Position numbers and translations under genes: made by a program | Part shown: positions 12,606 through 63,158 of the stretch, in pieces | How positions within the stretch are numbered: the first letter of the stretch is position 1 | Layout: each line of letters begins with the position of its first letter | Origin: Carcharhinus amblyrhynchos | Taxonomy: Eukaryota | Assembly: GCA_965287045.1 (NCBI GenBank) | Contig: OZ336871.1 | Coordinates: 36,890,001-36,954,000 of the forward strand | Direction: 5' to 3' | DNA length: 64,000 nt | Notes under the pieces: generated by a model | Seen by the model: the letters and a program-made list of their open reading frames with translations, nothing else | Told to the model about the DNA's origin: nothing | Database searches by the model: none

Positions 12606-13791
12606 ACTGAAGGCATTCGATATGGTGCCTCACAAAAGGTTGCTGCAGAAGATTAAGGTACACAGAGTTGGGGGTAAAGTGTTAGCGTGGATTGAGGATT
12701 GGTTATCTAATAGGACGCAGAGGGTTGGAATAAATGGGTGCTTTTCTGGTTGGCAGTTGGTGACTAGTGGCGTACCGCAGGGATCGGTGCTGGGGCCTCA
12801 ACTATTTACCATATACATAGACAACCCGGAGGAGGGGACCGAGTGTAGGGGAACAAAGTTTGCTGATGACACGAAGATGAGTGGGAAAGTGAATTGCGTG
12901 GAGGACGCGGAAAGTCTGCAGAGAGATTTGGATAGGCTGAATGAGTGGGCGAGGATCTGACAGATGGAGTATAATGTTGGCAAGTGTGAGGTTATCCACT
13001 TTGGAAGGAATAATAGTAAAATTGACTATTATGTAAATGGTGAAAAATTACAACATGCTACTGTGTAGAGGGACCTGGGGGTCCTTGTGCATGAATTGCA
13101 AAAACTCGGTCTGCAGGTACAGCAGGTGATCAAGAAGGCAAATGGAATGTTGGCCTTTATTGCGAGGGGGATGGAATATAAAAGCAGGGATGTCTTGCTG
13201 CAACTGTACAAGGTACTGATGAGGCTGCAACTAGAGTACTGTGTGCAATTTTGGTCCCCTTATTTGCGAAAGGATATATTGGCCTTGGAGAGAATACAGA
13301 GAAGGTTCACCAGGTTGATACCGGAGATGAGGGGGTTAGCTTATGAGGAGAGATTGAGTAGATTGGGCCTGTACTCGTTGGAGTTTAGAAGGCTGACAGG
13401 TGATCTTACAGAGACATATAAGATAATGAAGGGGCTAGATAGGGTAGAGGCAGAGAGATTCTTTTCACTTTGAAAGGAAACAAGAACTAGAGGACACAGC
13501 CTCAAAATAAGATGGGGGGGAGGCAGTTTAGAACAGAGTTGAGGAGGAACTTCATCTCTCAGAGGGTAGTGAATCTCTGGAATTCTCTGCCCATTGAAGC
13601 GGTGGAAGCTACCTCGTTGAATATGTTTAAGTCACAGGTAGATAGATTTCTGATCGATAAGGGAATTAAGGGTTATGGGGAGCAGGCGGGTAAGTGGAAC
13701 TGAACCACTTTCAGATCAGCCATGATCTTATTGAATGGAGGGGCAGGCTCGAAGGGCCTACTCCTGCTCCTGTTTCTTATGTTCTTATGTT
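12606..13791 (+). mobile_element. 5'-truncated CR1 LINE (RT to 3' end)
   Basis: VTSGVPQGSVLGPQLF, KFADDTK and LEYCVQFWSP motifs, ending in a (TTCTTATG)n tail. Confidence 0.95.
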
Positions 13792-14246
13792 CAATGTGGT
13801 TTCTTTCATTGTGGTTCGACATGCCACCAAAATCTGGCTACCAACCCATCATGATTGTGTGGACAATGATGGTGCCCCAAGATTCCTATGCTAAGCAAAG
13901 TCACACACAGGCTTCTATCAGTGGTCATCAAGTCCTGTGGCTATGGAGATTTGGTGATGGGGACAGGACTGTATAACTGGAAAACACTAAGAATCCTCAC
14001 ACAGGTGATGGAAGTACGAACACCTGTGCTGGGACAGAGTAATCTTTGGGTAGAAGCACCTGTTACTGACCAGTCATCTTCAGGATTCCCTCTACTCAAC
14101 TCAAATGGGGAGGGAGATAGTAAAGGTGTCCTAAAAGTAGGTTGTTCCACTTTCTCCAGGCTGGGGAAAGCACTTGCAGGATCACCATCTTCAAGGCCAA
14201 AGAAAGAGAAGAATTCCAAGTTCTGTTCTTGACCAGTCTAAAGTTT

Positions 14247-14953
14247 TACATAAGAACATAAGAAATAGGAGCAGGAGTAGGCCACCTAGCCCTTCGAGCC
14301 TGCCCCGCCATTCAATAAGATCATGGCTGATCTGTTGTGGCTCAGTTCCACTTTCCCGCCCTCTCCCCATAACCCTTAATCCCCTCTCTTATCAAGAACC
14401 CATCAACCCGCTTCTTAAAAATATTTAGCGAGGCAGCCTCCACCACTTCAACGGGCAGAGAATTCCAGAGATTCACCACCCTTTGAGTGAAGAAGTTCCT
14501 CCTCAACTCCGTTCTAAACCGCCTCCCCTTTATCTTGAGGCTGTGCCCCCTAGTCCTACTGTCTTTTTTGAGCGGGAAGAGTCTCTCCACCTCTATCCTA
14601 TCCATCCCATTCATCATCTTATACGTCTCAATGAGATCTCCCCTCATTCTTCTAAACTCTAACGAGTACAAGCCTAGTTTATTCAGCCTCTCCTCATAGC
14701 TCAATCCCCTCAACTCCGGTATCAGCCTAGTAAACCTCCTCTGCACTCCCTCCAGGGCCAAAATATCCTTGCGCAGGTGCGGCGCCCAAAACTGCACACA
14801 GTACTCCAGCTGCGGCCTCACCAATGCCCTATACAGCTGCAGCAAGACCTCCCTACTTTTATATTCAATCCCCCTCGCTATGAAGGCCAGCATCCCATTC
14901 GCCTTCCTGACCACCTGCTGCACCTGCAAGCTGGGTTTTTGTGACACATGCAA
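14247..14953 (-). mobile_element. Young 5'-truncated CR1 LINE
   Basis: Uninterrupted 203-aa ORF2 C-terminus (14342..14953), CpG-rich, with an (AAGAACAT)n tail on the + strand. Confidence 0.95.
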
Positions 14954-17529: not shown

Positions 17530-19085
17530 GCCAGAGATCAAAAATATAGAAATGTAAAATGGTCACAGCACAGAAGGATGCTATTCATCTCATTGAACCC
17601 ACTCTAGCTCTCAAAAGGAACAATTTGCTTCTGTAATCCTGCAATTATTTTCCCTTCAGGTGCTTTTTCAACTCAAGGCCACAATTGAAATCTGCTTCCA
17701 GCATACTGTCAGATCATAACCAGTTACTGTATAAAAATGTTTGTCCTCGTGTTGCCTTTTAAATTTTTGTCAATCACTTTAGATGGCATTCTCTAGTTCT
17801 TGAATTTTCTACCAATGAGAACAGATTCTCTCTATTCCGTCTAGACTTGTCATGATTTTGACTACCACTATCAAATTTCCTCCCAATCTTCTGTTCCTGA
17901 AGGAAAAGAAGCCCAATTTCTCCAATCTAACCACATAACTGAAGCCCCTTATTCCTAGAACCATTCTCATTAATCTTCTTTGCACCTTTTTTTACCCTCT
18001 CATGTCTCCCAAAATGCAGTACCCAGAATTGGACTTAATACTCCTACTGAGGTTGAACCAGTATTTTATAATGATGCACAATAATTTCCTTGCTTTTGTA
18101 CTCTATGTGCTGAACATTACAGGCTACTTGTGGATGTGAAAATAGGCGGATAAACCCATAATTTCAGACACTTTACCATCAGTGGCATGCTCATTGCTGG
18201 TCTACCTGCTCTAACCCCTTCCCCTTAGGGATATCTGAGAAGATGTCAGATGGGTTGCCCAACCTGTGACCAATTTGAGGCTCTTAAATGGGCAGAGAGG
18301 TCTCTGCCAATGGGAAGATAGGCCTCTGCCAATGTGTAGCCTGGCAGGTGTAACCCTGCAAGGCTGCTGGTCAGTGAAAAGGATCTTTCCCAGGTCCCCT
18401 GTGGCATTCAGAAGGTCTTCCCACCCTCCACAACTGTTTTACTTACCTGCATCCACCCTACCACCATCCTGTCCAAATGCCGCCAACCACCTCTCACTGG
18501 GGCCTGTCAGTCAGGCCCCAGTGAGATCTCATACTTAATTGAATGTCCAGGTCCATCACTGAATGTCGTCTCCTTGGCCTAAATGCATCACCAGCAGTGG
18601 CCACCACACTTGCTTGGTTCTGCCAGTCTGCACAGTTGCCAGTCTCCAATTGGCTGGCAACTCTGTGCAGTGGGATGTCCTCCTGGAGATGGATGGAAGT
18701 CCCATCTTACAATAACTAAAGGGTCATCACCTAAAAAACTAAAATGGGGCATGCCAGCTAAATGGAGGCAGTCTTAAACACGGAAATTTACACATGGATC
18801 CAGAGAGCCCAGCATCAGCATAAAATCCTGCCCTACGCCTTTATTTGTAAAGATGAGGATTCCATAGGTCTTTTAAACAATCTTCTTAAGCTATCCTTCA
18901 TGTTCAATGATTTGTGCACATATACCCTCAGGTCCCTCCACTCCTCCATCCCCTTTCGAATTATATAATGTTACTCCTACCAAAATGAATTACTTCACAC
19001 TTCGTTGCACTATATTTTATCTGCTGCATATCTCACCTATTCCAGTAGCCTGTCTATGCGATCTTGAAGTCTATCATTATCCTTT
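17530..19085 (-). mobile_element. Old CR1 fragment interrupted by a Harbinger-type non-autonomous element (about 18107-18832)
   Basis: CR1 motifs occur on both sides. The insert ends in the TIR-like TAAAATCCTGCCC. Confidence 0.6.
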
Positions 19086-26695: not shown

Positions 26696-28204
26696 TTATC
26701 TCCAAAGTTACAGATGATACAAAGCTGGGTGGGAGGGTGAGCTGTGAGGAGGATGCATAGATGCTTCAGCATGATTTGAACTGTTTAAGCAAATGGCCAT
26801 ATGCATATGGGCAGTACAATGTGGTAAATGTGTGATTATCCACTTTGGTAGCATAGGAAAATAGGAAGACAGATTATTACTTGTAAATTGTGAGAGATGG
26901 ATACTCAATGAGACAGACCCTGGTGTTCTCGAGTATCAGTTGCTAAAAGTAAGTGCTTAGGTTCAGCAGGCAGTAAAGAAGACAAATGTTATGTTGGCCT
27001 CCATAGTGAGAGGATTTGAGCATAGGAATAGGGATGTTTTACTGCAATTGTATAGGGCATTGGTGAGGCCACACTTAGAGTATTGTGTGCAATTTTATCC
27101 TTTTTTGAGGAAGGATATCCTTGCTATAGAGAGAGTACAGCAAAGATTTACCAGGTTGATACCTGGGATGGCAGAACTGACTGACAGGATTATATTCATT
27201 GGAGTTCGAAGAGTGAGAGAGGATCTCTCAGAAACTTATAAAATTTGAACAGGATTCAACAGGGTAGATTCATAAAGAACGTTCCTGATAGTGGGGAGTC
27301 CAGAACTAGGGCTCATTGTTTAAGGATAAGGGGTAAACCTTTTAGGAGTGAGGTGAGGAGTAATTTCTTCACCCTCTGTGCATCTGTGGCATTCACTGCC
27401 ATAGAAAGTAGTCGAGGCCAAAATGTTGTGAGATTCCAAGAAGACATTAGATATAGCCCTTAAGGCCAAAAGGATCAAAGGATATGGGGGAAGGCAGAAT
27501 CAGGGTATTGAATTTCATGATCAGCCATGATCATAATGAATGGCTGAGCAGGCTTAAAGGACCGAATAGCCTACTCTACTCTGATTCTAGTTTCTATGTA
27601 TGTTTCTATGTTTCAGAATTTAATCAGTGTTGTAGATTTTAATTTTTGCTGTTTGTCCCTTTTATTTCTTACATAATCCCTACTTTTTTTCTTTTATTTT
27701 TGTGTATGTTTCAGCCACCTTTTCTCCCCTGATTTAACTGCACTCTGTACAATTTCAGAGTCATGGCGAGGATCACGCAACCAGATAAAGAGACGTCCTC
27801 AATATACCAGTAACATTTTTGAAGGGAGCCATGATGTTAAAGTTAAATTTAAAGCCCTTCCCCAACATACATCGTGTTTCCTGCTCACCCCCCCCCACCC
27901 CCGCTACCATGGACATACCCTTCACCCCACCCTTCAACACCCACATGAATGGAAGTACCCACCATCAAGGAAAAGGGGAACCCTTTCCATTGAAGCGGAC
28001 AGCCCCAGTGGAGAAGGGTAATACCCAAGCAGTTCCCCCGGCAATGCCCCCCAGCACAAGCACAAGTAATAACCACACATCTCCTGGGGAGGAGAAGGTG
28101 TAACAATGGCGGATGTTATGGCAATTACATGATCTTTATTAAAATGTATCGATATCAGGTTTACGCCCTTTCTACACTCCATTTTTGGTTTCTTGCAAGA
28201 TTGC

Positions 28205-28740: not shown

Positions 28741-29794
28741 GTAACTTGAGGACCTAACACATATTGGAAAGTGAATATAATGGATGTTGTAGCTTTTTTA
28801 ACTTGTTGCTAAAAAATTGGCTTTATTTTCACACAACTTGATCATTTTGATGCCTGCTGTCCTATTGGATTCACATCAAGTTAAGTCTTATGCAGAGCAA
28901 GATTACACCTAAGTTCTGCAAAAAATTAGGCAGGAATGAGTGGTGATTTGCTGTCATTGGATGTTTGATCTAGAATGTCATTGTTTACGGGGATCTGTGG
29001 CACATGCAACGTGAGAGAAGTAAAAACATGGCTCTTTGATCAATCACATAAAAGAATCCTTACTGAAGTATTCAGAGTATAAATCAGGAAGTATAAACCA
29101 GGAATTTTAAATTTAATTTAAATTGTATACAGCAGGTGAAATAAAGTTTGGGATAAAAAGTAGGGATTATATAAGAAATAAAAGGGACAAACAGCAAAAA
29201 TTAAAATCTACAAATCTACTGATTACATTCTGAAAGATTGAGACTCCATACATGTAAAATAAAATGTGATGGATCAGAAAGATAGTTTGACAGTAATTCT
29301 GCCTGATTACAATGTTAAAAAATTGCTTGCATCTCAATGTAAGCCCTATTTTTTTCTGCCATGTTTAGTAGACAATAAATGGATAAGCACTTCACGCATC
29401 TTTATAAATTTCAGTGCCATGTCAGTCAAGGAATCAACAAAGTACTTTCATAGCGTAGCATGTGGAGAAGCAGTGTAACTCAAATTTCAACTTCTGGATT
29501 TTTGCATTTAACTGAGCATGTGAGTACTGAAGATGTTACTGTCTAATTTAGTCTAGAATGACAGTAAACATTGATAACCTCACCTGATTCTCAATGCAAA
29601 ATCCAGGCCACTGTAAAAATTTTAACTTAGACACAGCAAATTTACCTTATTATTTTTACTTATAATAAGCTTCTGTTTGCTTCAAACTAGAACCCTCCTC
29701 TTTATCCATGTTACCAGGGTGGAGACAACCCACAGAAAAATGAGCAATTTCGTAGGACTACTGCTATTAAATAGATTAACAACTCATTGATGTT

Positions 29795-33250: not shown

Positions 33251-33442
33251 GTAGTCTGACAGTTTACTTGCATGGATCCACAATTGTCAAATGCAAGCTG
33301 CCTACTCTCTGGGACATAGTGGGGGCTGACAATGGTTTGCCCATCTTCACCACTGCTTCCTATCTGGATTTACTGACATTAAAATGGAAACCACAAACAA
33401 CCTTCTGAAATAAACCATTGCCATTGTAGTTGAACAATCGCT

Positions 33443-34183
33443 ATGAACTTCCAGACCACTGGTGATTCCACTGAAAAACAATTGTTTTCTTCTGAGGAGC
33501 TGGAATGCAAAATCTGTTATAACCATTACAATCTGAAGAACAGGAGACCCAAGTTGTTGGAATGCTTTCACAGGGTGTGTGCCAAATGCCTGTATAAGAT
33601 TGTAGACCCTGGAGACTCCTCACAAAGTATAATTAGTTGTCCTTTCTGCAGGTATGAGACGAGTGTACTGGATGATGAAGTTGGTGGACTTCCAGATGAT
33701 AGTAATGTCCTTGCTGCCCTGGCATGCAAGGAGAAGAATAGAAAGCCTGCCTTGGACAACGCATCTGAGCTCCTACTGAGTCCAAAAACATTAGCTTCCA
33801 TTGCAAGTCCCTTCCATAGCTCCTCAAACTGTCTGGTTATCACTATCATGGAAGTTCAAAGAGAATCCCCACTATCTCAGAGATCACCATCAGCCATGGA
33901 AGTCCACAGCTCCAGTTTTGATTCAACAGCCTCAATGTCTCAGCAGTGGGAAATTTGGAATTGCCCTCCCCTACTCTGTCATATCATAGGAAGAATCTTA
34001 GTCTGGGTACTAGGACTTCTATATTTTGCTTCTTTACCTCTTGGTGTATATCTGCTAGTGATTCAGAAGGTCACAATGGGGATTATATTTGTCAGTCTTG
34101 TTCCCTCCAGTCTAGGTATACTTATGGTCTATGGTTTTTGTCAATGCTTGTGTCATGAGTTTTTGGATTGCATATCCTCATGA
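33443..34183 (+). CDS. RNF182: E3 ubiquitin-protein ligase RNF182(-like), single coding exon, 246 aa
   Basis: C3HC4 RING ([19 protein letters not shown]), the conserved [16 protein letters not shown] segment, two C-terminal hydrophobic TM segments and [13 protein letters not shown]. Colinear with vertebrate RNF182 over its full length. Confidence 0.93.
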
Positions 34184-36726: not shown

Positions 36727-36754
36727 AGATGGTACAGAAGATTTCAGAGACACC

Positions 36755-37620
36755 CAGTCTGGGAGGTTGGGGAGGGACAGAGAGCAAGAGATGGTACAGG
36801 CACTCAGACTGGGAGATTGGGGAAGGATATAGTGCAGCAGACTGAGGTGGGAGGCAATGTAGGAGACTGGGGAGGGACACCATATGGGAGACTGGGGTGG
36901 GAGGTAGTGTGGGAGACTGGGGAGGGACACAATGCAGGAGACTGGAGAGAGTCAGGGCGGGAGACTGGAGAGAGTCAGGGCGAGAGATTGGAGAAGGAGA
37001 GACAGTGTGGAAGAGTGGAGTAAGACAGAGACAGTCCAGGAGATTGGAGAAAGAATTATAGAATCCCATTTGGAAAGGAGGCCATTTGGCCCATTGAGTC
37101 TGCACCAACCACAATCCCATCCAGGCCCTGTCCCCTTAACCCCACCTATTTACCCTACAACCCCCTCCCCCACCCCCGACACAAAAGGGCAATTTGGCAT
37201 GACCAATCCAACCTAACTCGCACATTTTTGTGTGGAGAAAATGAGAGCACCCGGAGGAAACCCACGCAGACACAGGGAGAACATGTAAACAGTGACCCAA
37301 GGTTGGAATCAACCATGGCTTCCTGGCATCATGAGACAGCATTGCTAACCACTGTGCCACCATGACACAGAGAGAGCGATCTCCATGGCTGGAGATTGAA
37401 GAGAGAGAGAGACAGAGCAAGAGATTGTAGAGAGAGGCAGAGCAGGAGATTTGAGAGTGAGGGAAAGAGACTGGGCAGGAGATTGGAGAGGGGCATATTG
37501 TGGGAGATTGGAGAGGAGCACATTGTGGGAAATTGGAGAGGGGCACATTGTGGGAGATTGGAGAGGGGCACATTGTGGGAGATTGCAGAGGGGCACATTG
37601 TGGGAGATTGGAGAGAGGCA
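36755..37620. repeat. G-rich minisatellite (about 25-bp unit GGGAGATTGGAGAGGGGCACATTGT) interrupted by a SINE
   Basis: About 5.5 near-perfect units at 37477-37620 and degenerate units at 36755-37050. Confidence 0.85.
37058..37362 (-). mobile_element. HE1-type V-SINE
   Basis: Reverse-strand V-domain and GCTAACCACTGTGCCACC head. Confidence 0.88.
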
Positions 37621-37860
37621 TAGGCTGGAATTCTCCTATCCTGCCCACCATTGGATTTCTAGTGGGTGGGGAGAACGGACCATGTAAAGGTCCATTGAAG
37701 TTGGGCAGGAATCTCCAGTTTTCAGGTGAGCATGGCCAGAGAATCCCACCCATATTGTTCAAGATTGGAGAGATACACATCATTCAGAGATGCATTTTGT
37801 TGGTTTGGAGGATAAATATTTAGAACCATGGAACAGGTTAGATAGCAGTGTGGAGTTACT

Positions 37861-44590: not shown

Positions 44591-45125
44591 GTAATTGTTA
44601 AATATACATGGTGCTGAATGTTCTCAGACACTTATAAAATGTGAGTTTGACTCAGGCCGATGTATAGAAGAATAATAAATGTTTACAAAGTATGTTGACT
44701 GAGTCCAGACTGTTTACAATCTCCCTTTTATAGGTCCAAACTGAAGTTCACGAAAGCATTTGAATTCAAGTGAGCAAGTCATTTTTTAACAAAGTGTTGA
44801 ATATTGTGGGTTTCTAAAATCACTGAAATCAGGGACTTCCAAGAAATGTAATTCATTCCTGAGCTCACAGCTATGTACAACACTTGTGTTCTGCCCACAC
44901 TCTGGAGGTAACATCCACGCTTCCACCATGTGATCTTTTTTGTAGCTGTATCATTACATTTTCACACAACCACTCAGTCTACATCTTCCCTGCTCAGCTG
45001 GAACACCCAGTGGCATGGGATGTAACATCGTGTACAACAGGAAACTATGTACAGACCATTATGTAACATTCAATTAAACAAACTAACAACTAACTATTAA
45101 CACATATATTGAGTCATGGATTAAA

Positions 45126-45445
45126 ATCATAGAATCCTAAAGTGCAGAAGAAGGCCATTCGGCCCATTGGGTCTGCACCGACCACAATCCCATCCAGGCT
45201 CTATCCACATAACGCCATGCATTTACCCCAGCTAGTTCCCCTGACATTAAGGGGAAATTTAGCATGGCCAATCCATCTAACCTGCACATCTTTGGACTGT
45301 GGGAGGAAACTGGAACACCAGGACGAAACCCATGCAGACAAGAGGAGAACATGCAAACTCCACACAGACAATGACCCAAGCCAGGAATCGAACCGGGGTC
45401 CCTGGCGCTGTGAGGCTGTAGTGCTAACCATTGTGCCACCATGCT
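45126..45445 (-). mobile_element. HE1-type V-SINE inside Gypsy
   Basis: Full head, V-domain and tail on the minus strand. Confidence 0.92.
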
Positions 45446-46387
45446 GACCCTGTTTAGGTTCTAGCAACTGCGCAGTCAAAATCCTGACCATTTCACTTGG
45501 TGTTGCAAGGCCAAATGTGTAGGCATCTTGATCATAGTGCATTTTGCTTTTCAATCTGCATTGCAGGAGGGCATCATTCACATTGGTTTCACATTTAGGC
45601 TGCAGCAGTTATTAGTAGTAGCAATTGTGGTCCTGGAGTGTCTGGAAAAAGTAATTGTGCTGATGAGGGCAGGCTCTGTCATGGTTGATTTACTGGTTGA
45701 GCAGTGCAGCATAACAGTCTATATGATCCCATGCACAGTTCTCTAGAAGATGTTTGGATGAGTGAGCTACCCTTTCCACCAAACCATTTGACTGTGGATA
45801 TAGGGGACTGCTTGTGATATGCTTAAAGTCCCACAGGCATGCAAAGCTGATGAATTAGCGAACATTGTCTGTAATAAGTCTCTGTGGGATGCCATGTGTG
45901 GCGAAGTGTTTCTTAAGCTTGATGACTACTGTTTTACTTGTCATGTTTATAGGAACATAGAAAATAAGAACAGGAGTTGACCATTCAGCCCTTCAAGCTC
46001 AATGGCAGGCAGTTAAGTTCAAACCAACCGGAATACGAACCAGCTAACACTAAATGTTGTTTATTATTCCATTCAAAGGTGTCAATGACCATGCTGTGAA
46101 TGACCATGGGAGATCTGGGACTTTGTGTAAATGCAGTGATTCCTTTGCTTGTTGTGACTGTAGTGCATTGCATAGTGTGCATCTGGAGATTTCCCCTTTC
46201 CATGTCTGCGTACATGGAGGGCCATGTATACTGGGCCAGTGATGCCTTGACCAGCATCTGGATCATTCCACCCTACAACGCCCTTGGTGCAGATGTTGGG
46301 TGTAGTACCTCTGGAGGGCAGTAAGATGATGGATCATTGGCCATGCAGTATTAGCCCATGTGGTACAGTCAGTTCATCTCTAATGGT

Positions 46388-47018
46388 GAACATAAGAACA
46401 TAAGAAATAGGAGCAGGAGTAGGCCATCTAGCCCTTCGAGCCTGCCCCGTCATTCTATAAGATCATGGCTGATCTGGAGTGGATCAGTTCCACTTTCCAG
46501 CTTTCTCCCCATAACCCTGAATTCCCTTGTGTCAAAAACCTATCTACCCGTGATTTAAATATATTTAGTGAGGTAGCCTCCTCCACTTCAACGGGCAGAG
46601 AATTCCAGAGATTCACCACCCTTTGAGTGAAGAAGTTCCTCCTCAACTCTGATCTAAACTGCCCCCCCGTTATCTTGAGGCTGTGCCCTCTAGTCCTGCT
46701 ATCCTTTCTAAGCGGGAAGAATCTCTCTACCTCTACTCTATCCATCCCTTTCATTATCTTATACGTCTCTATAAGATGCCCCCTCATCCTTCTAAACTCC
46801 AAAGAGTACAGACCCTGTCTATTTAGTCTCTCTTCATAGTTCTCCGGTATCAGCCTAGTGAACCTCCTCTGCACTCCCTCCAAGGCCAAAATATCCTTGC
46901 ACAAGTGCAGCGACCAAAACTGCACACAGTACTCCAGCTGCAGCCTCACCAGTACCCTGTACAGTTGCAGCAAGACCTCCCTGCTTTTATGTTCTATCCC
47001 CCTCGCTATAAAGGCCAG
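46388..47018 (-). mobile_element. 5'-truncated CR1 inside Gypsy pol
   Basis: 172-aa ORF2 C-terminus (46455..46973) and an (AAGAACAT)n tail. Same subfamily as 14247-14953. Confidence 0.92.
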
Positions 47019-48004
47019 TGAAGAATGTGCAGAGCTCTGGCCAGCTCCTCATGATGACGGCAGACAGCTGCCAATATGTGATGTCTGCCTTTAGGACCTG
47101 CTTGACTTCCTAAGTTTGATGAGAGGACAGAAACTCTATTGCCATAATTTCTATATCTTCCTTATAACCTGCCTGATCTCTAGTGGTAAGAAGGCGCTGC
47201 AGAGAGCTTCAGCCAAGTACAGCTCCTTGTCACATTTGTAGAAGACTCTGAGGTTGTAGCATTGCAATTTTACTATCTTGCGTTGCAGCTGAGCAGACAC
47301 AATATAGAGATGCTTCTTTAAGATAGTTTAAAAAAAATCTGTCGTGCCATGAAAGTGAGTAAAGTATGTTTGTCTACAGGAATGGCCATCTGTCGTATAG
47401 CCATTATCTTGTCTGGATGGGCATTACAGCATTGTGTGTGGGTAAATTTCCCACATAAGAAACTTGGTTGACCCTGAATCTGCAATTCATAGGGTGAAGT
47501 TTTAACTGGATCATCCTGGTTCTGTCATGAACGGGATGAATATGTGCATCATGCTCTTGCATTGTACAACCCCAAACAAAGATGTCATCAGCAATGATCT
47601 CGCAAGGTTGGCCTCCATACACCACTGGAAAATCTCACTGCCTGTGGAGATCCATTGGGCATACAAAGAAAATTATAGCTGTCTTCTGGAGACATGAATG
47701 TGATTACTTTCGAGGTTCTCTTATCAAATGGATGTACCAGAACTTGCATCGAGAATGCTGAAGTCCTTAGCATTTGGCATGTCAGCTATTATCTGTTCCA
47801 CCGTCTTCATAGGGTGATGAGGTCCGAGCAGTCCCTTGTTCAAGCACACTGGGTCAATGCAAATCTTGATCATGCCATTTTTCCTTATGGCCACCATTAC
47901 TGAAACCCATTCTATGGCCTCGCACGTAGGGGTTATGACACCTATTGCTGTCAGCTTGTGCAACTCATTAATTATTTTCTGCTTCATGGCCACTGGTCAG
48001 AGCA

Positions 48005-48267
48005 AGAAGTCTCACAACAGCAGGTTAAAGTCCAACAGCTTTATTTGGTAGCACAAACCACTAGCTTTCGGAGCACTGGTCCTTCATCAGGTAAGTGGGA
48101 ATTCTGGGCACAAACAGGGCAAATAAAGACACAAACTCAATTTACAAAATAATGGTTGGAATGCGAGTCTTTACAGGTAATCAAGCCTTAAAGGTACAAA
48201 CAATGTGAATGTGTGTGGAGAGAGGGTTAAGCACAGGTTAAAGAGATGTATGTGTATTGTCTCCAGC
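48005..48267 (-). mobile_element. Penelope-like pLTR fragment with hammerhead core and 14-bp TSD
   Basis: TSD CA(C/G)TGGTCAGAGCA at 47991-48004 and 48268-48281. Minus strand CUGAUGA-A-GGA-CCAGUGC-UCC-GAAA at 48066-48090. Confidence 0.8.
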
Positions 48268-49450
48268 CAGTGGTCAGAGCACAGACTATTGATAGTCGTA
48301 AATGAATGAGGCTCATGTGGTATACTACTGGTAGCTTACCAATGATGTCACAGTTGGAGAAGTCTCTATACGCTGTTATCTCTGGAGCTTGGAGTTGTAG
48401 AGCATGCACTTTTGGAGCTGAATGAGCTCCAATGCAACGGTGTTCAGCTGGGTCAGCAGACAGGGAGAGGGGCTTGTGTCCAGGGAGCAATTGGCGCATG
48501 GGGGGTGGTGTGGCGGGTTTGATGTCCGTGAGGGGTGGAGAAAACTGGAAGTGATCAGGAATATGACCCGATGTCTGGGGGAGAAGGGGGGAGGGTGTTG
48601 GGGGGAAATGACAGATCTCCAGTGCACTGTGTACACTATATACTGAGAGATCAGCGCAGTGGTGCGCTGTAGCTCAGCAGCTGGCTTCACTGGTGAGATC
48701 ACGCTCTGCCCTGCCCCCTACTGCCAAGAATCTCATCCTGTCATTTCTTTTTAACTTAAGTGCCATAAGATTGTATTTTTCAACTCACCAAAAAAACAAA
48801 TGTGAAATTCTCGCACTTGCTCAGCACTTTGAATTTTTTTGGAAGATCACCCCCTAAATTTCTGGTCAGCTATATGGAACTTGAAATTTCCCTTTGTGCA
48901 GTGGAGGGTTTCTACATGTTCAGTGTGAATTGTCCACTATAAGCCACAAGGTGTGTCTGGGCATGGGAATCTGATACTGCAGACTAGCTCCGGTAACCTT
49001 CGGATGGATGGATCATTAACTCCAGTGTCAGTCTTGACTTTAATTCTGGAATTGCTGCCAATTATGTTGAAGATAGTGAGGATCTCACTATCAATTTTGA
49101 TGCAAAAGAGTGCTGCTGGAAGTTCTGTAGATTTATTGCTTTGGTTGAACACTGATTCATTCTGATTGAACAGTTGCCAGGTTGCTTATGACAAAGGAGG
49201 GCTGCTATAGTGCTTAGTAAAGTGGTTCAATTTCCTCCATTTGTTGTATCTTTTATTATTTGCAAAACAAGCTGTTTTGTTTGATGGGTACGGCTGCTGC
49301 ATTTGGAGCAGGGACCCCTGCACTGCAAATGCCTCAGTTTCCCACCTAAAATTTCTGCTTTGTTTCTCTGATTGTTCGTTTAACACAGTAAAAAGTCTGA
49401 CAACACCAGGTTTTAGTCCAACCTATTTATTTGATAATATATTATATAAT

Positions 49451-51830
49451 ATATGGACTGCTTCAGTTTCTGAGGAATTATGAATGATACTGGAAATATT
49501 CCCACTTCTGACCTTGTAATTGAAGGAAAGTCATTGATGAAACAGCTGAAGATGATTGGGCCTAGGACAATACTCTGAGGAACTCCTACATACAGTGATA
49601 TCTTGGAACTGAGATGATCGACCTTGAACAACCACAACCTTCTTTTGTGCTAGGTATGACTCCAACCAGTGGAAAATCTCCCCCCAATTTCTATTGATTC
49701 CAGTTTTGTTAGAACTCCTTTATGCTATACTCGGTTTATTGCTATTTTGATGTCAAGGGTAGCCACTCTCACCTCAGCTCTGGATTTCAGATCTTTTATC
49801 CATGTTTGAACCAAGGCTGGAATAAGGTTGAGAGCTGAGTGACCTGGTGGAACCCAAACTGAGCCATACAAGTATAGGTGACAGACGCAAAGCAATAAGT
49901 AATCTTGTACTATAATGTATGTTTCTTAAAACCATTCAAAGGGAACATTTCAACATTATGCTTTGGGTAAACTGACTGGTCCTTGAGAACGTGATGACGT
50001 AGCTACAAAGAGGTCATGTGGCTGGAGTGTGGGATTATCCCCAGGAGCACTGACAAAGTGCAAGTGTTGTGTTTGGAGGCTGAGCTCAGGAAAAAACTAC
50101 CTTTGTTGATTTCGGTGACTTAGGAACCCACAACATTCAACATGGTGTCTGGATTTGGCAGTATGGCACAAGGACTTTGCCACTTCGACCCATTTGTCTT
50201 TGAAGAAAATATTGTGGATAGTTGGGAGAAGTTCCAGAAGGAGTAACCTATTTACTGCTGTGCTGTACTCACTGACAAGTTGAATATTGGTATAGGCTTA
50301 TAATTTATTAAACACCACAGGCCCTGAGCCGGTGAAAAATCAAAATTGTTTGTTTTCCAAACAGAGGAAGAAAATGTAGATCCCAAGGTAATCTTGAATC
50401 AGTTCAGGAACATCCATCTCTCAGGAAAAAACATCATCCTTGATAGAATTCGATTCAATAACCAAAGAGCAGATGAGTCAATACACAGCTGCTGTGAGAA
50501 AAAGACTTAACATTACAAGCAGCCATCAATATCTGTGTGTTAAACGAACATGATGTGGGTATGCCGGCGTTGGACTGGCGTAAACACAGTAAAAAGTCTG
50601 ACAACACCAGGTTTTAGTCCAACCTATTTATTTGATAATATATTATCAAATAAATAGGTTGGACTAAAACCTGGTGTTGTCAGACTTTTTACTGTGTTTA
50701 CGCCAGTCCAACGCCGGCATACCCACATCATGTTCGTTTAACACACAGATATTGATGGCTGCTTGTAATGTTAAGTCTTTTTCTCACAGCAGCTGTGTAT
50801 TGACTCATCTGCTCTTTGGTTATTGAATCGAATTCTATCAAGGATGATGTTTTTTCCTGAGAGATGGATGTTCCTGAACTGATTCAAGATTACCTTGGGA
50901 TCTACATTTTCTTCCTCTGTTTGGAAAACAAACAATTTTGATTTTTCACCGGCTCAGGGCCTGTGGTGTTTAATAAATTATAAGCCTATACCAATATTCA
51001 ACTTGTCAGTGAGTACAGCACAGCAGTAAATAGGTTACTCCTTCTGGAACTTCTCCCAACTATCCACAATATTTTCTTCAAAGACAAATGGGTCGAAGTG
51101 GCAAAGTCCTTGTGCCATACTGCCAAATCCAGACACCATGTTGAATGTTGTGGGTTCCTAAGTCACCGAAATCAACAAAGGTAGTTTTTTCCTGAGCTCA
51201 GCCTCCAAACACAACACTTGCACTTTGTCAGTGCTCCTGGGGATAATCCCACACTCCAGCCACATGACCTCTTTGTAGCTACGTCATCACGTTCTCAAGG
51301 ACCAGTCAGTTTACCCAAAGCATAATGTTGAAATGTTCCCTTTGAATGGTTTTAAGAAACATACATTATAGTACAAGATTACTTATTGCTTTGCGTCTGT
51401 CACCTATACTTGTATGGCTCAGTTTGGGTTCCACCAGGTCACTCAGCTCTCAACCTTATTCCAGCCTTGGTTCAAACATGGATAAAAGATCTGAAATCCA
51501 GAGCTGAGGTGAGTGTGGCTACCCTTGACATCAAAATAGCAATAAACCGAGTATAGCATAAAGGAGTTCTAACAAAACTGGAATCAATAGAAATTGGGGG
51601 GAGATTTTCCACTGGTTGGAGTCATACCTAGCACAAAAGAAGGTTGTGGTTGTTCAAGGTCGATCATCTCAGTTCCAAGATATCACTGTATGTAGGAGTT
51701 CCTCAGAGTATTGTCCTAGGCCCAATCATCTTCAGCTGTTTCATCAATGACTTTCCTTCAATTACAAGGTCAGAAGTGGGAATATTTCCAGTATCATTCA
51801 TAATTCCTCAGAAACTGAAGCAGTCCATAT
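49451..51830. repeat. Long palindrome with 1190-bp arms and no spacer, centre between 50640 and 50641
   Basis: Block-by-block comparison shows the arms are reverse complements with one mismatch (49767 T vs 51514 T). Centre TTTGATAATA|TATTATCAAA. Confidence 0.97.
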
Positions 51831-60600: not shown

Positions 60601-61231
60601 TTTGATTTGCACAGTTTATCAGTGTCCCCGTCGTTTGCAATGGAGGCATTGGACAGTGGTTGCAGGCTACTAATCTTGCCCATGAGGGTGCTTTGCACTG
60701 CATTGCTGGTAACATTACTTTGTAGGGCAGTTCAGGAATTGCTTTCCTTGACTTTGATGGTCCCTGCATTTTGGTGATCCGATGTGATGGACTGAGAGTG
60801 GTTTCTGCCCCATATAGTGTCCTTTCTGCTTAAGATGTCCGATGTTGTTCATTTAGCTGTCAGTTTAACTAACTGGATTCCTTGTCTCAGGATATTTAGC
60901 TTGCAAGAGATCAGACTGACAGGTTCCTGGGTGGTTGGATTCTCTTACTAAATTTGGCTCTCGCCAGTATTTTAAAACACAATCAAATTTGACAGTTGTC
61001 TCATTGATAGCATGTCACGCAACGATACTGTCTGTAATTAATCCAATCAAGTAAATAATTGTATTGATTTATTCTGCATTTGACATTTTATCTAAGCCTG
61101 TAGCAACGCTATATCTTAAAAATCTTTTCCTCTAGGAACTCCAATTCTGTGACTGCTGTGGGCCATGGGTGAATCCTCATTGAGCTGGAAGTATGGAATT
61201 ACAATCCACATTGAAGATTTTTTAAAATGTG

Positions 61232-61825
61232 ATGATGTGGAGATGCTGGCGTTGGACTGGGGTGGACACAATAAGAAGTCTCACAACACCAGGTTGAAGT
61301 CCAACAGGTTTATTTGGAATCACAAGCTTTTGAAGTGCTGCTCCTTCATCAGGTGAGTGGGGAGGTGGGTTCACAAACACGGCATTATATAGGCACAGAA
61401 ACAATTGCAAGGTAATGGTTGGGAAGTGAGTCTTAACAGGTAATCAAGTCTTTACAGGTACAGCTAGTCAGAGAGGAGAAAGGGATGATCACAGGTTAAA
61501 AAGGTATGAATTGTCTCAAGCCAGGAGTTCGTAGGATTTTGCATGCCCAGGCCAAATGGTGGGGGTTATAGGTAATGTGACATGAACTCAAGATCCCAGT
61601 TGAGTGTGGAACTTGGCTATCAGTTTCTGCTCAGCAATTCTGTATTGTGTGTTTTGAAGGCTGCCTTGGAGAAGGCTTATCCGAAGATTGGAGGCTGATT
61701 GCCCGTGACTGTTGAAGTGTTTCCCAACTGGAAGGGAACATTCCTGCTTGGTGATTGTCACGTAGTGTCCATTCATCCGTTGTTGTAGCATCTGCATTGT
61801 CTCACCAATGTACCAAGCCTCGGGA
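61232..61825 (-). mobile_element. 5'-truncated Penelope-like element (GIY-YIG endonuclease C-terminus plus pLTR)
   Basis: IGETMQMLQQRMNGH..LPVGKHFN..RIAEQKLIAKF. The pLTR has a mutated hammerhead core (61328-61352). TSD TTTTAAAATGTG at 61220-61231 and 61826-61837. Confidence 0.88.
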
Positions 61826-62313
61826 TTTTAAAATGTGGGTACAGCTTTAAGAGATATAGGGTTCCAAGATAGCATTACTGCTCACTGCCTAACAATGGAT
61901 CTTCCTGCAAAGGGCTTGCTTCCATTCTGCAAACCTCTATGACGGTTTTTGGTATGTTTTCCAAAATGGCAATGGCATGTTGCTGCCTGAAAAAGGGTCT
62001 GGGATGGTTGTGTGGCTCGGCCAGCTGCCGATTTAATTTAATCTGCAATATATCATTGCAAGCTGGGACCCATAGAAAAGATCCATAGGCCATAGGCTTA
62101 TTGTTAAGGAACTAGGACGGTCACAAGGTACCCAATAAACAAAATTAATTTAAATATTTTTTGCTTTGTGAAATTTGGGAACAGAATTAGTGATGTGTTC
62201 CATTCTGACAGATTTTCTGCCTGAGTGAATGAAAAGGAATTTCTCTTGTCTAACTGGCCTGGAATTTAAAAACAGATCTCATCCTTGCAGATTGGGAGCT
62301 CTGCTTGTTGAAG

Positions 62314-63158
62314 CTGGACTGCCAAAGGAGATTCAATGCTTCCAGGTTCTTGGGTCTCTGGAGGTATTTCTTTCTGCCGAATTTTGTCCATGTCCATACC
62401 TTCAGTTGGGAGTTTATTTCAGTCCCAAATCTGTTGAAGGTCTTCTTAATTAATTTCTCTGCATTTTTGTGAGGATAAGGGTTTTTGATGCAGATGCTGT
62501 AACATAAAGATTTAGATACCAGGAAGTAGGCTTTGTCATCGTGACTATATTAACAACACGCCGTTATTAACAACTCACAACTAATATATATATAAATATA
62601 TATATCTGGCCTTCTCTAGACTCAGTAAGAAGTCTCATAACACCAGGTTAAAGTCCAACAGGTTTATTTGGTAGCACAAGCCACTAGCTTTCGGAGCACT
62701 GATCCTTCATCGGGTGAGTGGGATTTCAGTTCACAAACAGGGCATATAAAGACACAAACTCAATTTACAATTTACAAAATAATGTAAACCCCAGTCCCAC
62801 GCCAGATCTCCACATCTTCTCCAGACTGACCTTGGTTCTAGATCATGCACCTTCTTAAGTAACTGTGTGGCAGTACTTCATGTTACCGCATCTGCATCAA
62901 AAACCCTTATCCTCACAAAAATGCAGAGAAATTAATTAAGAAGACCTTCAACAGATTTGGGACTGAAATAAACTCCCAACTGAAGGTATGGACATGGACA
63001 AAATTCAGCAGAAAGAAATACCTCCAGAGACCCAAGAACCTGGAAGCATTGAATCTCCTTTGGCAGTCCAGTTATTAATAACGGCGTGTTGTTAATATAG
63101 TCAAGATGACAAAGCCTACTTCCTGGTCTCTAAATCAGGAATCTTCATGTTACAGCAT
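62314..63158. repeat. Permuted inverted duplication (A-B ... A'-B')
   Basis: 62314-62509 is the reverse complement of 62876-63071, and 62509-62575 is the reverse complement of 63070-63136, with about 3 mismatches each. Confidence 0.9.
62623..62815 (-). mobile_element. Penelope-like pLTR fragment plus inverted 3' tail, with 12-bp TSD
   Basis: TSD CTTCTC(T/C)AGACT at 62611-62622 and 62816-62827. Hammerhead-like CCGAUGA..GAAA at 62689-62713, and an inverted terminus CCCCAGTCC..CCACATC. Confidence 0.8.

Follow-up and report, generated by a model that had tools for sequence, protein, structure and literature searches.

A 2.4-kb spacer-less palindrome centred on a PLE end and probably seeded by the insertion of the element

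The window, that is, the whole 64-kb stretch of DNA that we analysed, contains a palindrome with two arms of 1190 nt each and zero spacer (49451-50640 and 50641-51830), and the structure is confirmed. Its centre is the 90-nt end of a Penelope-like element (PLE) fused to its own mirror image. The palindrome probably exists as a real allele, in which the tip of a PLE insertion gave rise to an inverted duplication of 1.1 kb. Inverted duplication of the flank by a retrotransposon is known from LINE-1; what is unusual here is an inverted flank copy of 1,100 bp at a PLE. The palindrome is a mutational by-product with no evident function. The locus is informative for PLE integration and for palindrome stability, and it is a single locus in dead transposon DNA, with no gene affected.

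The geometry was established with a repeat finder and self-BLAST, and the arms were compared directly. They agree at 1189 of 1190 positions, the sole difference being a T/A transversion (49767 versus 51514). An earlier sequence-only reading of this DNA had described arms that differ at one base, and this count and all of its coordinates are confirmed. None of the 13 CpGs per arm differs between the arms, and the 40 nt around the centre (50640/50641) are 85% A+T. Outside the locus the longest spacer-less arm in the 64-kb window is 9 bp, and in 20 out of 20 local shuffles the longest such arm measures 7-10 bp; a second PLE-centred palindrome is absent from the same 64 kb. The longest short hairpin outside the locus is one of 35 nt (18492-18526), with 15-bp arms and a 5-nt loop. 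The features of the locus are collected in Table 1, together with the other PLE copies of the window.

Table 1. The palindrome locus from left to right, its host element and the three other PLE copies of the window.
Feature	Position	Strand	Remarks
Left copy of the 15-bp target-site duplication	49373..49387	+	Last 6 nt (AACACA) also PLE sequence, priming microhomology
Tail-less PLE pseudo-LTR (pLTR) tip	49388..49439	- (element sense)	Internal start close to that of the tail-less copies 48001 and 62619
6 nt beyond the tip's symmetry centre, start of the mirror arm	49440..49445	.	
Junction: 5-nt filler and 4-nt ATAT microhomology to the flank end	49446..49454	.	9+9 palindrome with 49437-49445
Inverted copy of the right flank 50746-51830	49451..50535	-	LINE RT fragment, Gypsy 5' LTR (~49967-50142), gag start (50163-50535)
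Third copy of the target-site duplication, inverted, carried by the fold-back	50536..50550	-	
Mirror copy of the 90-nt tailed PLE tip	50551..50640	-	
90-nt PLE 3' end	50641..50730	+	32-38-nt tail (~50693/50699-50730)
Right copy of the target-site duplication	50731..50745	+	Gypsy gag homologue residues 166-169 on both direct copies
Original flank	50746..51830	+	Gypsy gag 5' part (minus strand, start 51118), 5' LTR (~51139-51314), plus-strand LINE RT fragment
Old decayed Gypsy LTR retrotransposon hosting the insertion	44795..51314	-	LTRs ~67% identical; also broken by PLE 47994-48281 and LINE
Tail-less PLE, 48001 copy	47994-48281		Intact minimal hammerhead motif, 11-bp duplication; breaks the same Gypsy between homologue residues 424 and 429
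Tailed 5'-truncated PLE, 61232 copy	61220-61837		Endonuclease-region remnant, 12-bp duplication; hammerhead core AAAA instead of GAAA
PLE insertion, 62619 copy	62611-62827		Tail-less copy with hammerhead motif and opposite tail-only piece (~62788-62819), 12-bp duplication

The PLE identity of the centre is borne out by alignment with the PLE copies in the window: over 85 nt, its 90-nt sequence and the terminus of the 61232 copy agree at 83.5%, and its identity to the ends of the 48001 and 62619 copies is ~80%. The palindrome locus itself has no ORF. The 61232 copy retains an ORF remnant for which the named matches are all shark proteins (17 of 30 candidates passed) and which is 68% identical to residues 553-627 of one of them, P0010, a protein with an RT domain; on these matches, a shark is the probable source of the DNA. 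Pfam does not call a GIY-YIG domain here; judging by motifs, we take the P0010-like region to be the GIY-YIG-type endonuclease of a Neptune-type PLE. Target-site duplications accompany all three other PLE copies (11, 12 and 12 bp, the last 12-bp one with one mismatch), compared with 15 bp at the palindrome. The locus has a one-sided tail within the 30-40-nt range, a head-to-head inverted 5'-truncated copy with a palindromic junction and a short duplication, all of them features described for PLE insertions. The range of 32-38 nt for the tail length comes from the assignment of the 6-nt microhomology, and the tail is present on the right copy and missing from the left. The layout of the 62619 copy, where a tail-less copy faces a tail-only piece, fits priming from both nicks in this genome. 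As expected, prokaryotic genome contigs yielded no exact match to the PLE tip.

The insertion sits in the gag region of an old Gypsy element. Residues 1-169 of the Gypsy polyprotein P0024 map by tblastn to 51118-50733 and residues 166-358 to 49386-48862; the two matches overlap only at four codons inside the duplication, and pol continues leftward. The homologue thus runs collinearly across the insert, as expected from the earlier description of a 1343-bp insertion (49388-50730) in Gypsy gag with a 15-bp duplication. The identification as Gypsy is based on a stop-free RT piece (8 of 13 candidates) and on tblastn of three full-length matches, and the LTR pair lies at ~51139-51314 and 44795-44982. 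Other searches with the Gypsy pieces were negative: Pfam gave no match, the word-indexed search returned no relative of the gag-protease piece, and no solved relative of the pol piece was found. One HMMER match of the gag-protease piece was discarded as an unrelated repetitive protein. Also in the flank is part of a LINE RT that extends beyond 51830; its Pfam match (RVT_1, E 5e-6) falls short of the curated threshold. Because the Gypsy homologue is collinear across the insert and the LINE continues past the end of the palindrome, we identify the right arm as the original sequence and the left one as its copy. Both flanks are intact and collinear, with no flank lost. Copying of 1.1 kb of host flank, as first proposed, therefore stands; the copied DNA consists of remains of old transposons (a Gypsy LTR and gag and a fragment of LINE RT) and is not a gene.

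Several other features of the window deserve mention. At 62314-63158 there is a small inversion with inverted duplications at either end (62314-62509/62876-63071, 193/196 identical, and 62494-62575/63070-63158, 78/89 including a 7-nt gap), with an apparent switch at a 16-bp inverted repeat and a 10-nt AT palindrome at the return junction. We rejected it as a replicate of the PLE-tip palindrome: the PLE lies inside the loop with a 12-bp duplication of its own, and the switch points are non-PLE. It shows that inverted duplications arise here without a PLE tip, and because its arms have diverged, such inverted structures are real in this genome. A non-PLE inverted repeat (27584-27691 and 29152-29265, 62-nt core at 97%, 1460 nt apart) could be a staggered inversion or a pair of transposon ends. 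Two older inverted LINE 3' fragments, ~80% identical, lie at 13088-14952, and many further LINE and SINE-like copies are spread across the window. A 249-codon open frame at 33434-34183 (+) has an N-terminal RING finger (Pfam zf-RING_5, E 1e-7) and probably represents one exon of an E3 ligase gene of the host. Tandem arrays of degenerate 25-bp GA-rich units form two blocks at 36737-37645.

Two kinds of repeated segment frame the palindrome. The 15-mer TGTTCGTTTAACACA occurs at 49373 and 50731, and inverted at 50536, and nowhere else in the window. The left junction had been said to carry a 64-bp copy of the hairpin tip, and the match is exact (49382-49445 equals 50583-50646), its first 6 nt being common to the 15-bp duplication. 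Across the 64 shared nt the three tip copies are identical, and so are the three copies of the duplication. Fold-back at the PLE tip with copying of the right flank is supported. If the allele is real, it shows fold-back at a PLE end that was already attached to the target, because the mirror carries the duplication and the flank.

At the return junction on the left, the end of the flank and the centre of the tip have ATAT in common, and the filler together with these 4 nt (49446-49454) repeats the tip centre. The 5-nt AT filler noted earlier is indeed present, and it looks templated by the tip centre: it completes a second palindrome of 9+9 bp centred at 49445/49446, which only 1 of the 32 possible A/T 5-mers would do (a post-hoc test). 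On the bottom strand, the order is flank copy, partial tip copy, full tip. We infer that the overshooting strand re-primed on the tip, giving the templated filler; the junction resembles polymerase-theta-type joining with a templated insertion. The tip and the flank end also match over 6 nt, which is no more than chance would give and was not considered further. In the model, the tip forms only a weak hairpin (-2.2 kcal/mol, z -1.1), and no fold is obtained for the left tip by itself.

How did the palindrome arise? We see about an even chance that one aberrant PLE integration left a real genomic scar by way of nicks, two cDNAs, fold-back, fill-in and microhomology rejoining. The 15-bp duplication would reflect nicking of both Gypsy target strands 15 nt apart, presumably by the PLE endonuclease. 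The 3' end of the top strand would prime at an internal start site, giving the tail-less copy with its 6-nt microhomology, and the 3' end of the bottom strand would prime at the 3' end of the element, giving the tailed copy. The two opposed copies are present at the locus, and priming from both strands as their source is suggested by the Anolis PLE, whose protein nicks and extends both strands and whose two start sites bracket the tail (PMC11167929). The right cDNA would stop at its AT-rich end, near the position at which the hammerhead of its relatives is predicted to be cut, and would then fold back. A DNA polymerase would extend the folded end, copying first the end's own 90 nt, then the duplication and finally flank over 1,085 nt, a product that we can read directly; this extension would probably fill a resected gap. 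The new strand would be released at an unligated nick at 51830, and its ATAT end would re-prime on the tip, so becoming complementary to the left cDNA, after which the ends would be joined and filled in.

Support for a single event comes from the tip and duplication copies, because their identity records no time gap; against it, 64 identical nt are also compatible with a time gap of a few percent divergence. Nor is snap-back, from which a loop usually remains, the easiest way to a zero spacer; end-joining of two identical cDNA ends, or ligation of a hairpin, would yield one more readily. The weakness of the modelled tip hairpin and the lack of a second PLE-centred palindrome in the 64 kb also speak against it. 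The fit to the Anolis PLE is reduced by the left junction, which has 6 nt of homology, whereas the Anolis PLE initiates without target homology (PMC11167929).

A possible alternative, which we hold to be less probable, takes two steps. An ordinary short inverted PLE pair (a 58-bp perfect stem with an AT-rich centre) would have been inserted first and later cut as a cruciform or hairpin, or have stalled a fork; its right end would have folded back, or have received a hairpin cap that was subsequently opened at a distance of 1190 nt by a nick or by replication and breakage, and would have been joined again to the left end, a route that includes a giant P-nucleotide addition. Both the absence of a spacer and the 6 nt by which the left tip overruns the centre would follow directly, although tip-templated filler accounts for these 6 nt without an earlier pair. 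Inverted pairs with palindromic junctions are a common PLE product (PMC3846280), and it is established in yeast that short inverted repeats seed inverted duplications (PMC10622511, PMC10766186). Switching also occurs in this genome, as the inverted duplication at 62314-63158 was apparently seeded by its 16-bp non-PLE inverted repeat. Against two steps, a second break is required, the tip and duplication copies are without divergence, and palindrome processing usually widens the spacer or deletes an arm (PMC10766186), while here nothing is deleted. Fold-back during integration and later cruciform cleavage would be indistinguishable by sequence alone.

An artefact appears unlikely. The true allele would then be the short inverted pair, and the long arm would have entered the assembly through whole-genome amplification or through a library molecule that was chimeric or folded back. 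The near-identity of the arms would suit such an origin: one difference in 2380 bases by error alone has a probability of 0.21 at QV40 and of 0.02 at QV50. Among genomic ONT reads ~0.55-0.6% are fold-backs, which arise repeatedly at given sites (PMC12870357), long perfect palindromes are rare in natural genomes (PMC10766186), and an existing 58-bp hairpin could seed artefacts. However, a fold-back read has one junction, and the second junction, which returns to the proper left flank across only 4 nt of homology and a templated filler, could hardly be invented by an overlap assembler; moreover, fold-backs are virtually absent from the HiFi data tested in the study that counted them (PMC12870357).

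Very improbable is RNA-templated capture, whereby a read-through transcript of an earlier tailed insertion (tip, duplication and 1.1 kb of flank) would be reverse-transcribed into the same site by template jumping, leaving two pLTRs in direct and one in inverted orientation around host DNA: the left arm does read like cDNA of such a transcript, but re-insertion at an identical nick with the same 15-bp duplication would be needed, poly(A) is absent at 51830, and the captured DNA is the immediate flank, for which DNA-level fold-back takes fewer steps. The locus does not fit a breakage-fusion-bridge or ODIRA palindrome, there being no distal loss and the flank being present twice, not three times.

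The position of the fold-back had been placed within a few nt of a hammerhead cleavage site. Using the minimal PLE hammerhead definition (PMC4209133), a motif search of the 48001 and 62619 copies recovers the core boxes together with a helix III that is palindromic and a helix I of 4 bp; the 61232 copy has the same features with one core change. The putative cut lies 15 nt upstream of a shared AAATAAA in the former two and 8 nt upstream in the latter. The fold-back point is 7 nt upstream of this conserved motif and the end of the left tip 13 nt upstream, so that the offset of the fold-back from the putative cut is 8 nt with the 48001 and 62619 copies as reference and 1 nt with the 61232 copy. 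The sequence at the locus starts downstream of the hammerhead motif, and the ribozyme is thus absent from it; the window as a whole likewise lacks the ribozyme of this subfamily. Scanned against Rfam, the entire window had 0 matches at gathering score. When the three hammerhead regions were folded freely as RNA, none took up the hammerhead fold, and neither they nor the 90-nt tip have significant structure (z between -0.6 and 0.5). For the Anolis PLE in vitro, hammerhead cleavage is dispensable, and none of the RNA-seq reads terminated at the cut site (PMC11167929). The fold-back is thus near the predicted homologous cut (offset 1-8 nt, according to which copy serves as reference), and a role of hammerhead cleavage in fixing the tip position would be plausible for this PLE subfamily.

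For the age of the palindrome, a rate of 7e-10 mutations per base per generation is given for the epaulette shark (PMC10587355), possibly not the species of this DNA. At this rate, one real mismatch translates into ~6e5 generations (95% range 1.5e4 to 3.3e6), an estimate to be read with the reservation that the mismatch may be an error and that arm-to-arm conversion would hide age. The palindrome may be very recent or tolerated, the two states suggested earlier. The LINE copy elsewhere in the window does not span the mismatch site (49767/51514), leaving the ancestral base unpolarised. If real, the locus is a natural 2.4-kb, AT-centred palindrome without spacer, a type described as unstable and rare (PMC10766186), and its age is possibly 1e4-1e6 generations. 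Each of the mirrored Gypsy LTRs points toward the centre, so that transcription reading through it would give a long hairpin directed against Gypsy and PLE sequence; this is an old LTR, probably a silent one.

More speculatively, we would generalize in the following way. Fold-back of target-attached first-strand cDNA could be a regular PLE step and the source of head-to-head pLTR palindromes without an antisense RNA template; overshoot of this step would yield kilobase-sized spacer-less host palindromes which would be maintained in the germline where genomes are rich in PLEs and mutate slowly, as in sharks, and PLEs would be recurrent generators of inverted duplications and hairpin-RNA loci. 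If so, palindrome centres are expected genome-wide on this PLE tip. As for the earlier suggestion that PLEs are a source of inverted duplications of host DNA, it is based on this one locus; its generality does not follow, and LINE-1 is already known for the same outcome.

How does the locus compare with known systems? With long-read fold-back artefacts (PMC12870357) it shares spacer-less, near-identical mirror arms; it differs from them by its second, non-homologous return junction and by the biologically correct duplication across the insert. In yeast, foldback priming takes place at breaks near short inverted repeats (PMC10622511), and in humans palindromic junctions have in most cases undergone rearrangement by the time they are observed (PMC10766186). 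Our locus has in common with foldback priming and with ODIRA, as described in these papers, that a short palindrome folds back and is then filled in; unlike there, we see no dicentric outcome, terminal loss or triplication, and the flanks are retained and the arms intact.

Known PLE insertions are also close. Their reported pattern is an inverted truncated copy with a palindromic junction, a one-sided tail of 30-40 nt and a short duplication, and the origin of these inverted, tailed insertions is described as unresolved (PMC3846280; PMC8557442). The head-to-head pLTR insertions (PMC3846280; PMC8557442; PMC11167929) and the palindrome have in common the inverted 5'-truncated copy, the palindromic junction, the tail and the duplication. 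In contrast to those insertions, the mirror here also takes in the tail, the duplication and flank DNA of 1,085 nt, and the far junction has a tip copy as well, the third. A PLE-made inverted duplication of target flank was not found in the accessible text of the mostly open-access literature searched, including bioRxiv 10.64898/2026.07.22.740005 and PMC3072357.

Counterparts of the outcome are LINE-1 insertions with inverted duplication of the target flank. In normal colon clones 3 + 1 such events (0.3% and 0.1%; the 4 events are ~0.3% of somatic insertions), of 52-220 bp, have been assigned to a process C (PMC10191854). Two more, an experimental example and one from a cancer, lie on the reciprocal end and keep the duplication (bioRxiv 10.1101/2024.12.14.628481). 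As in these cases, the palindrome has a preserved duplication and an end-joined return junction, and a small hairpin would have primed synthesis over the flank. An inverted flank copy with a preserved duplication, which marks the LINE-1 class, is present at our locus, and fold-back of the non-cDNA end, which marks it as well, is not: the centre lies inside the retroelement. The locus works like this class in a different configuration. The reported LINE-1 events fold on the reciprocal (non-cDNA) end and are somatic or experimental, whereas here the cDNA tip is folded, both ends carry cDNA, the copy measures 1,190 bp and there is zero spacer. If the allele is real, it would extend retrotransposon-induced inverted duplication from somatic LINE-1 to a second class of retroelement.
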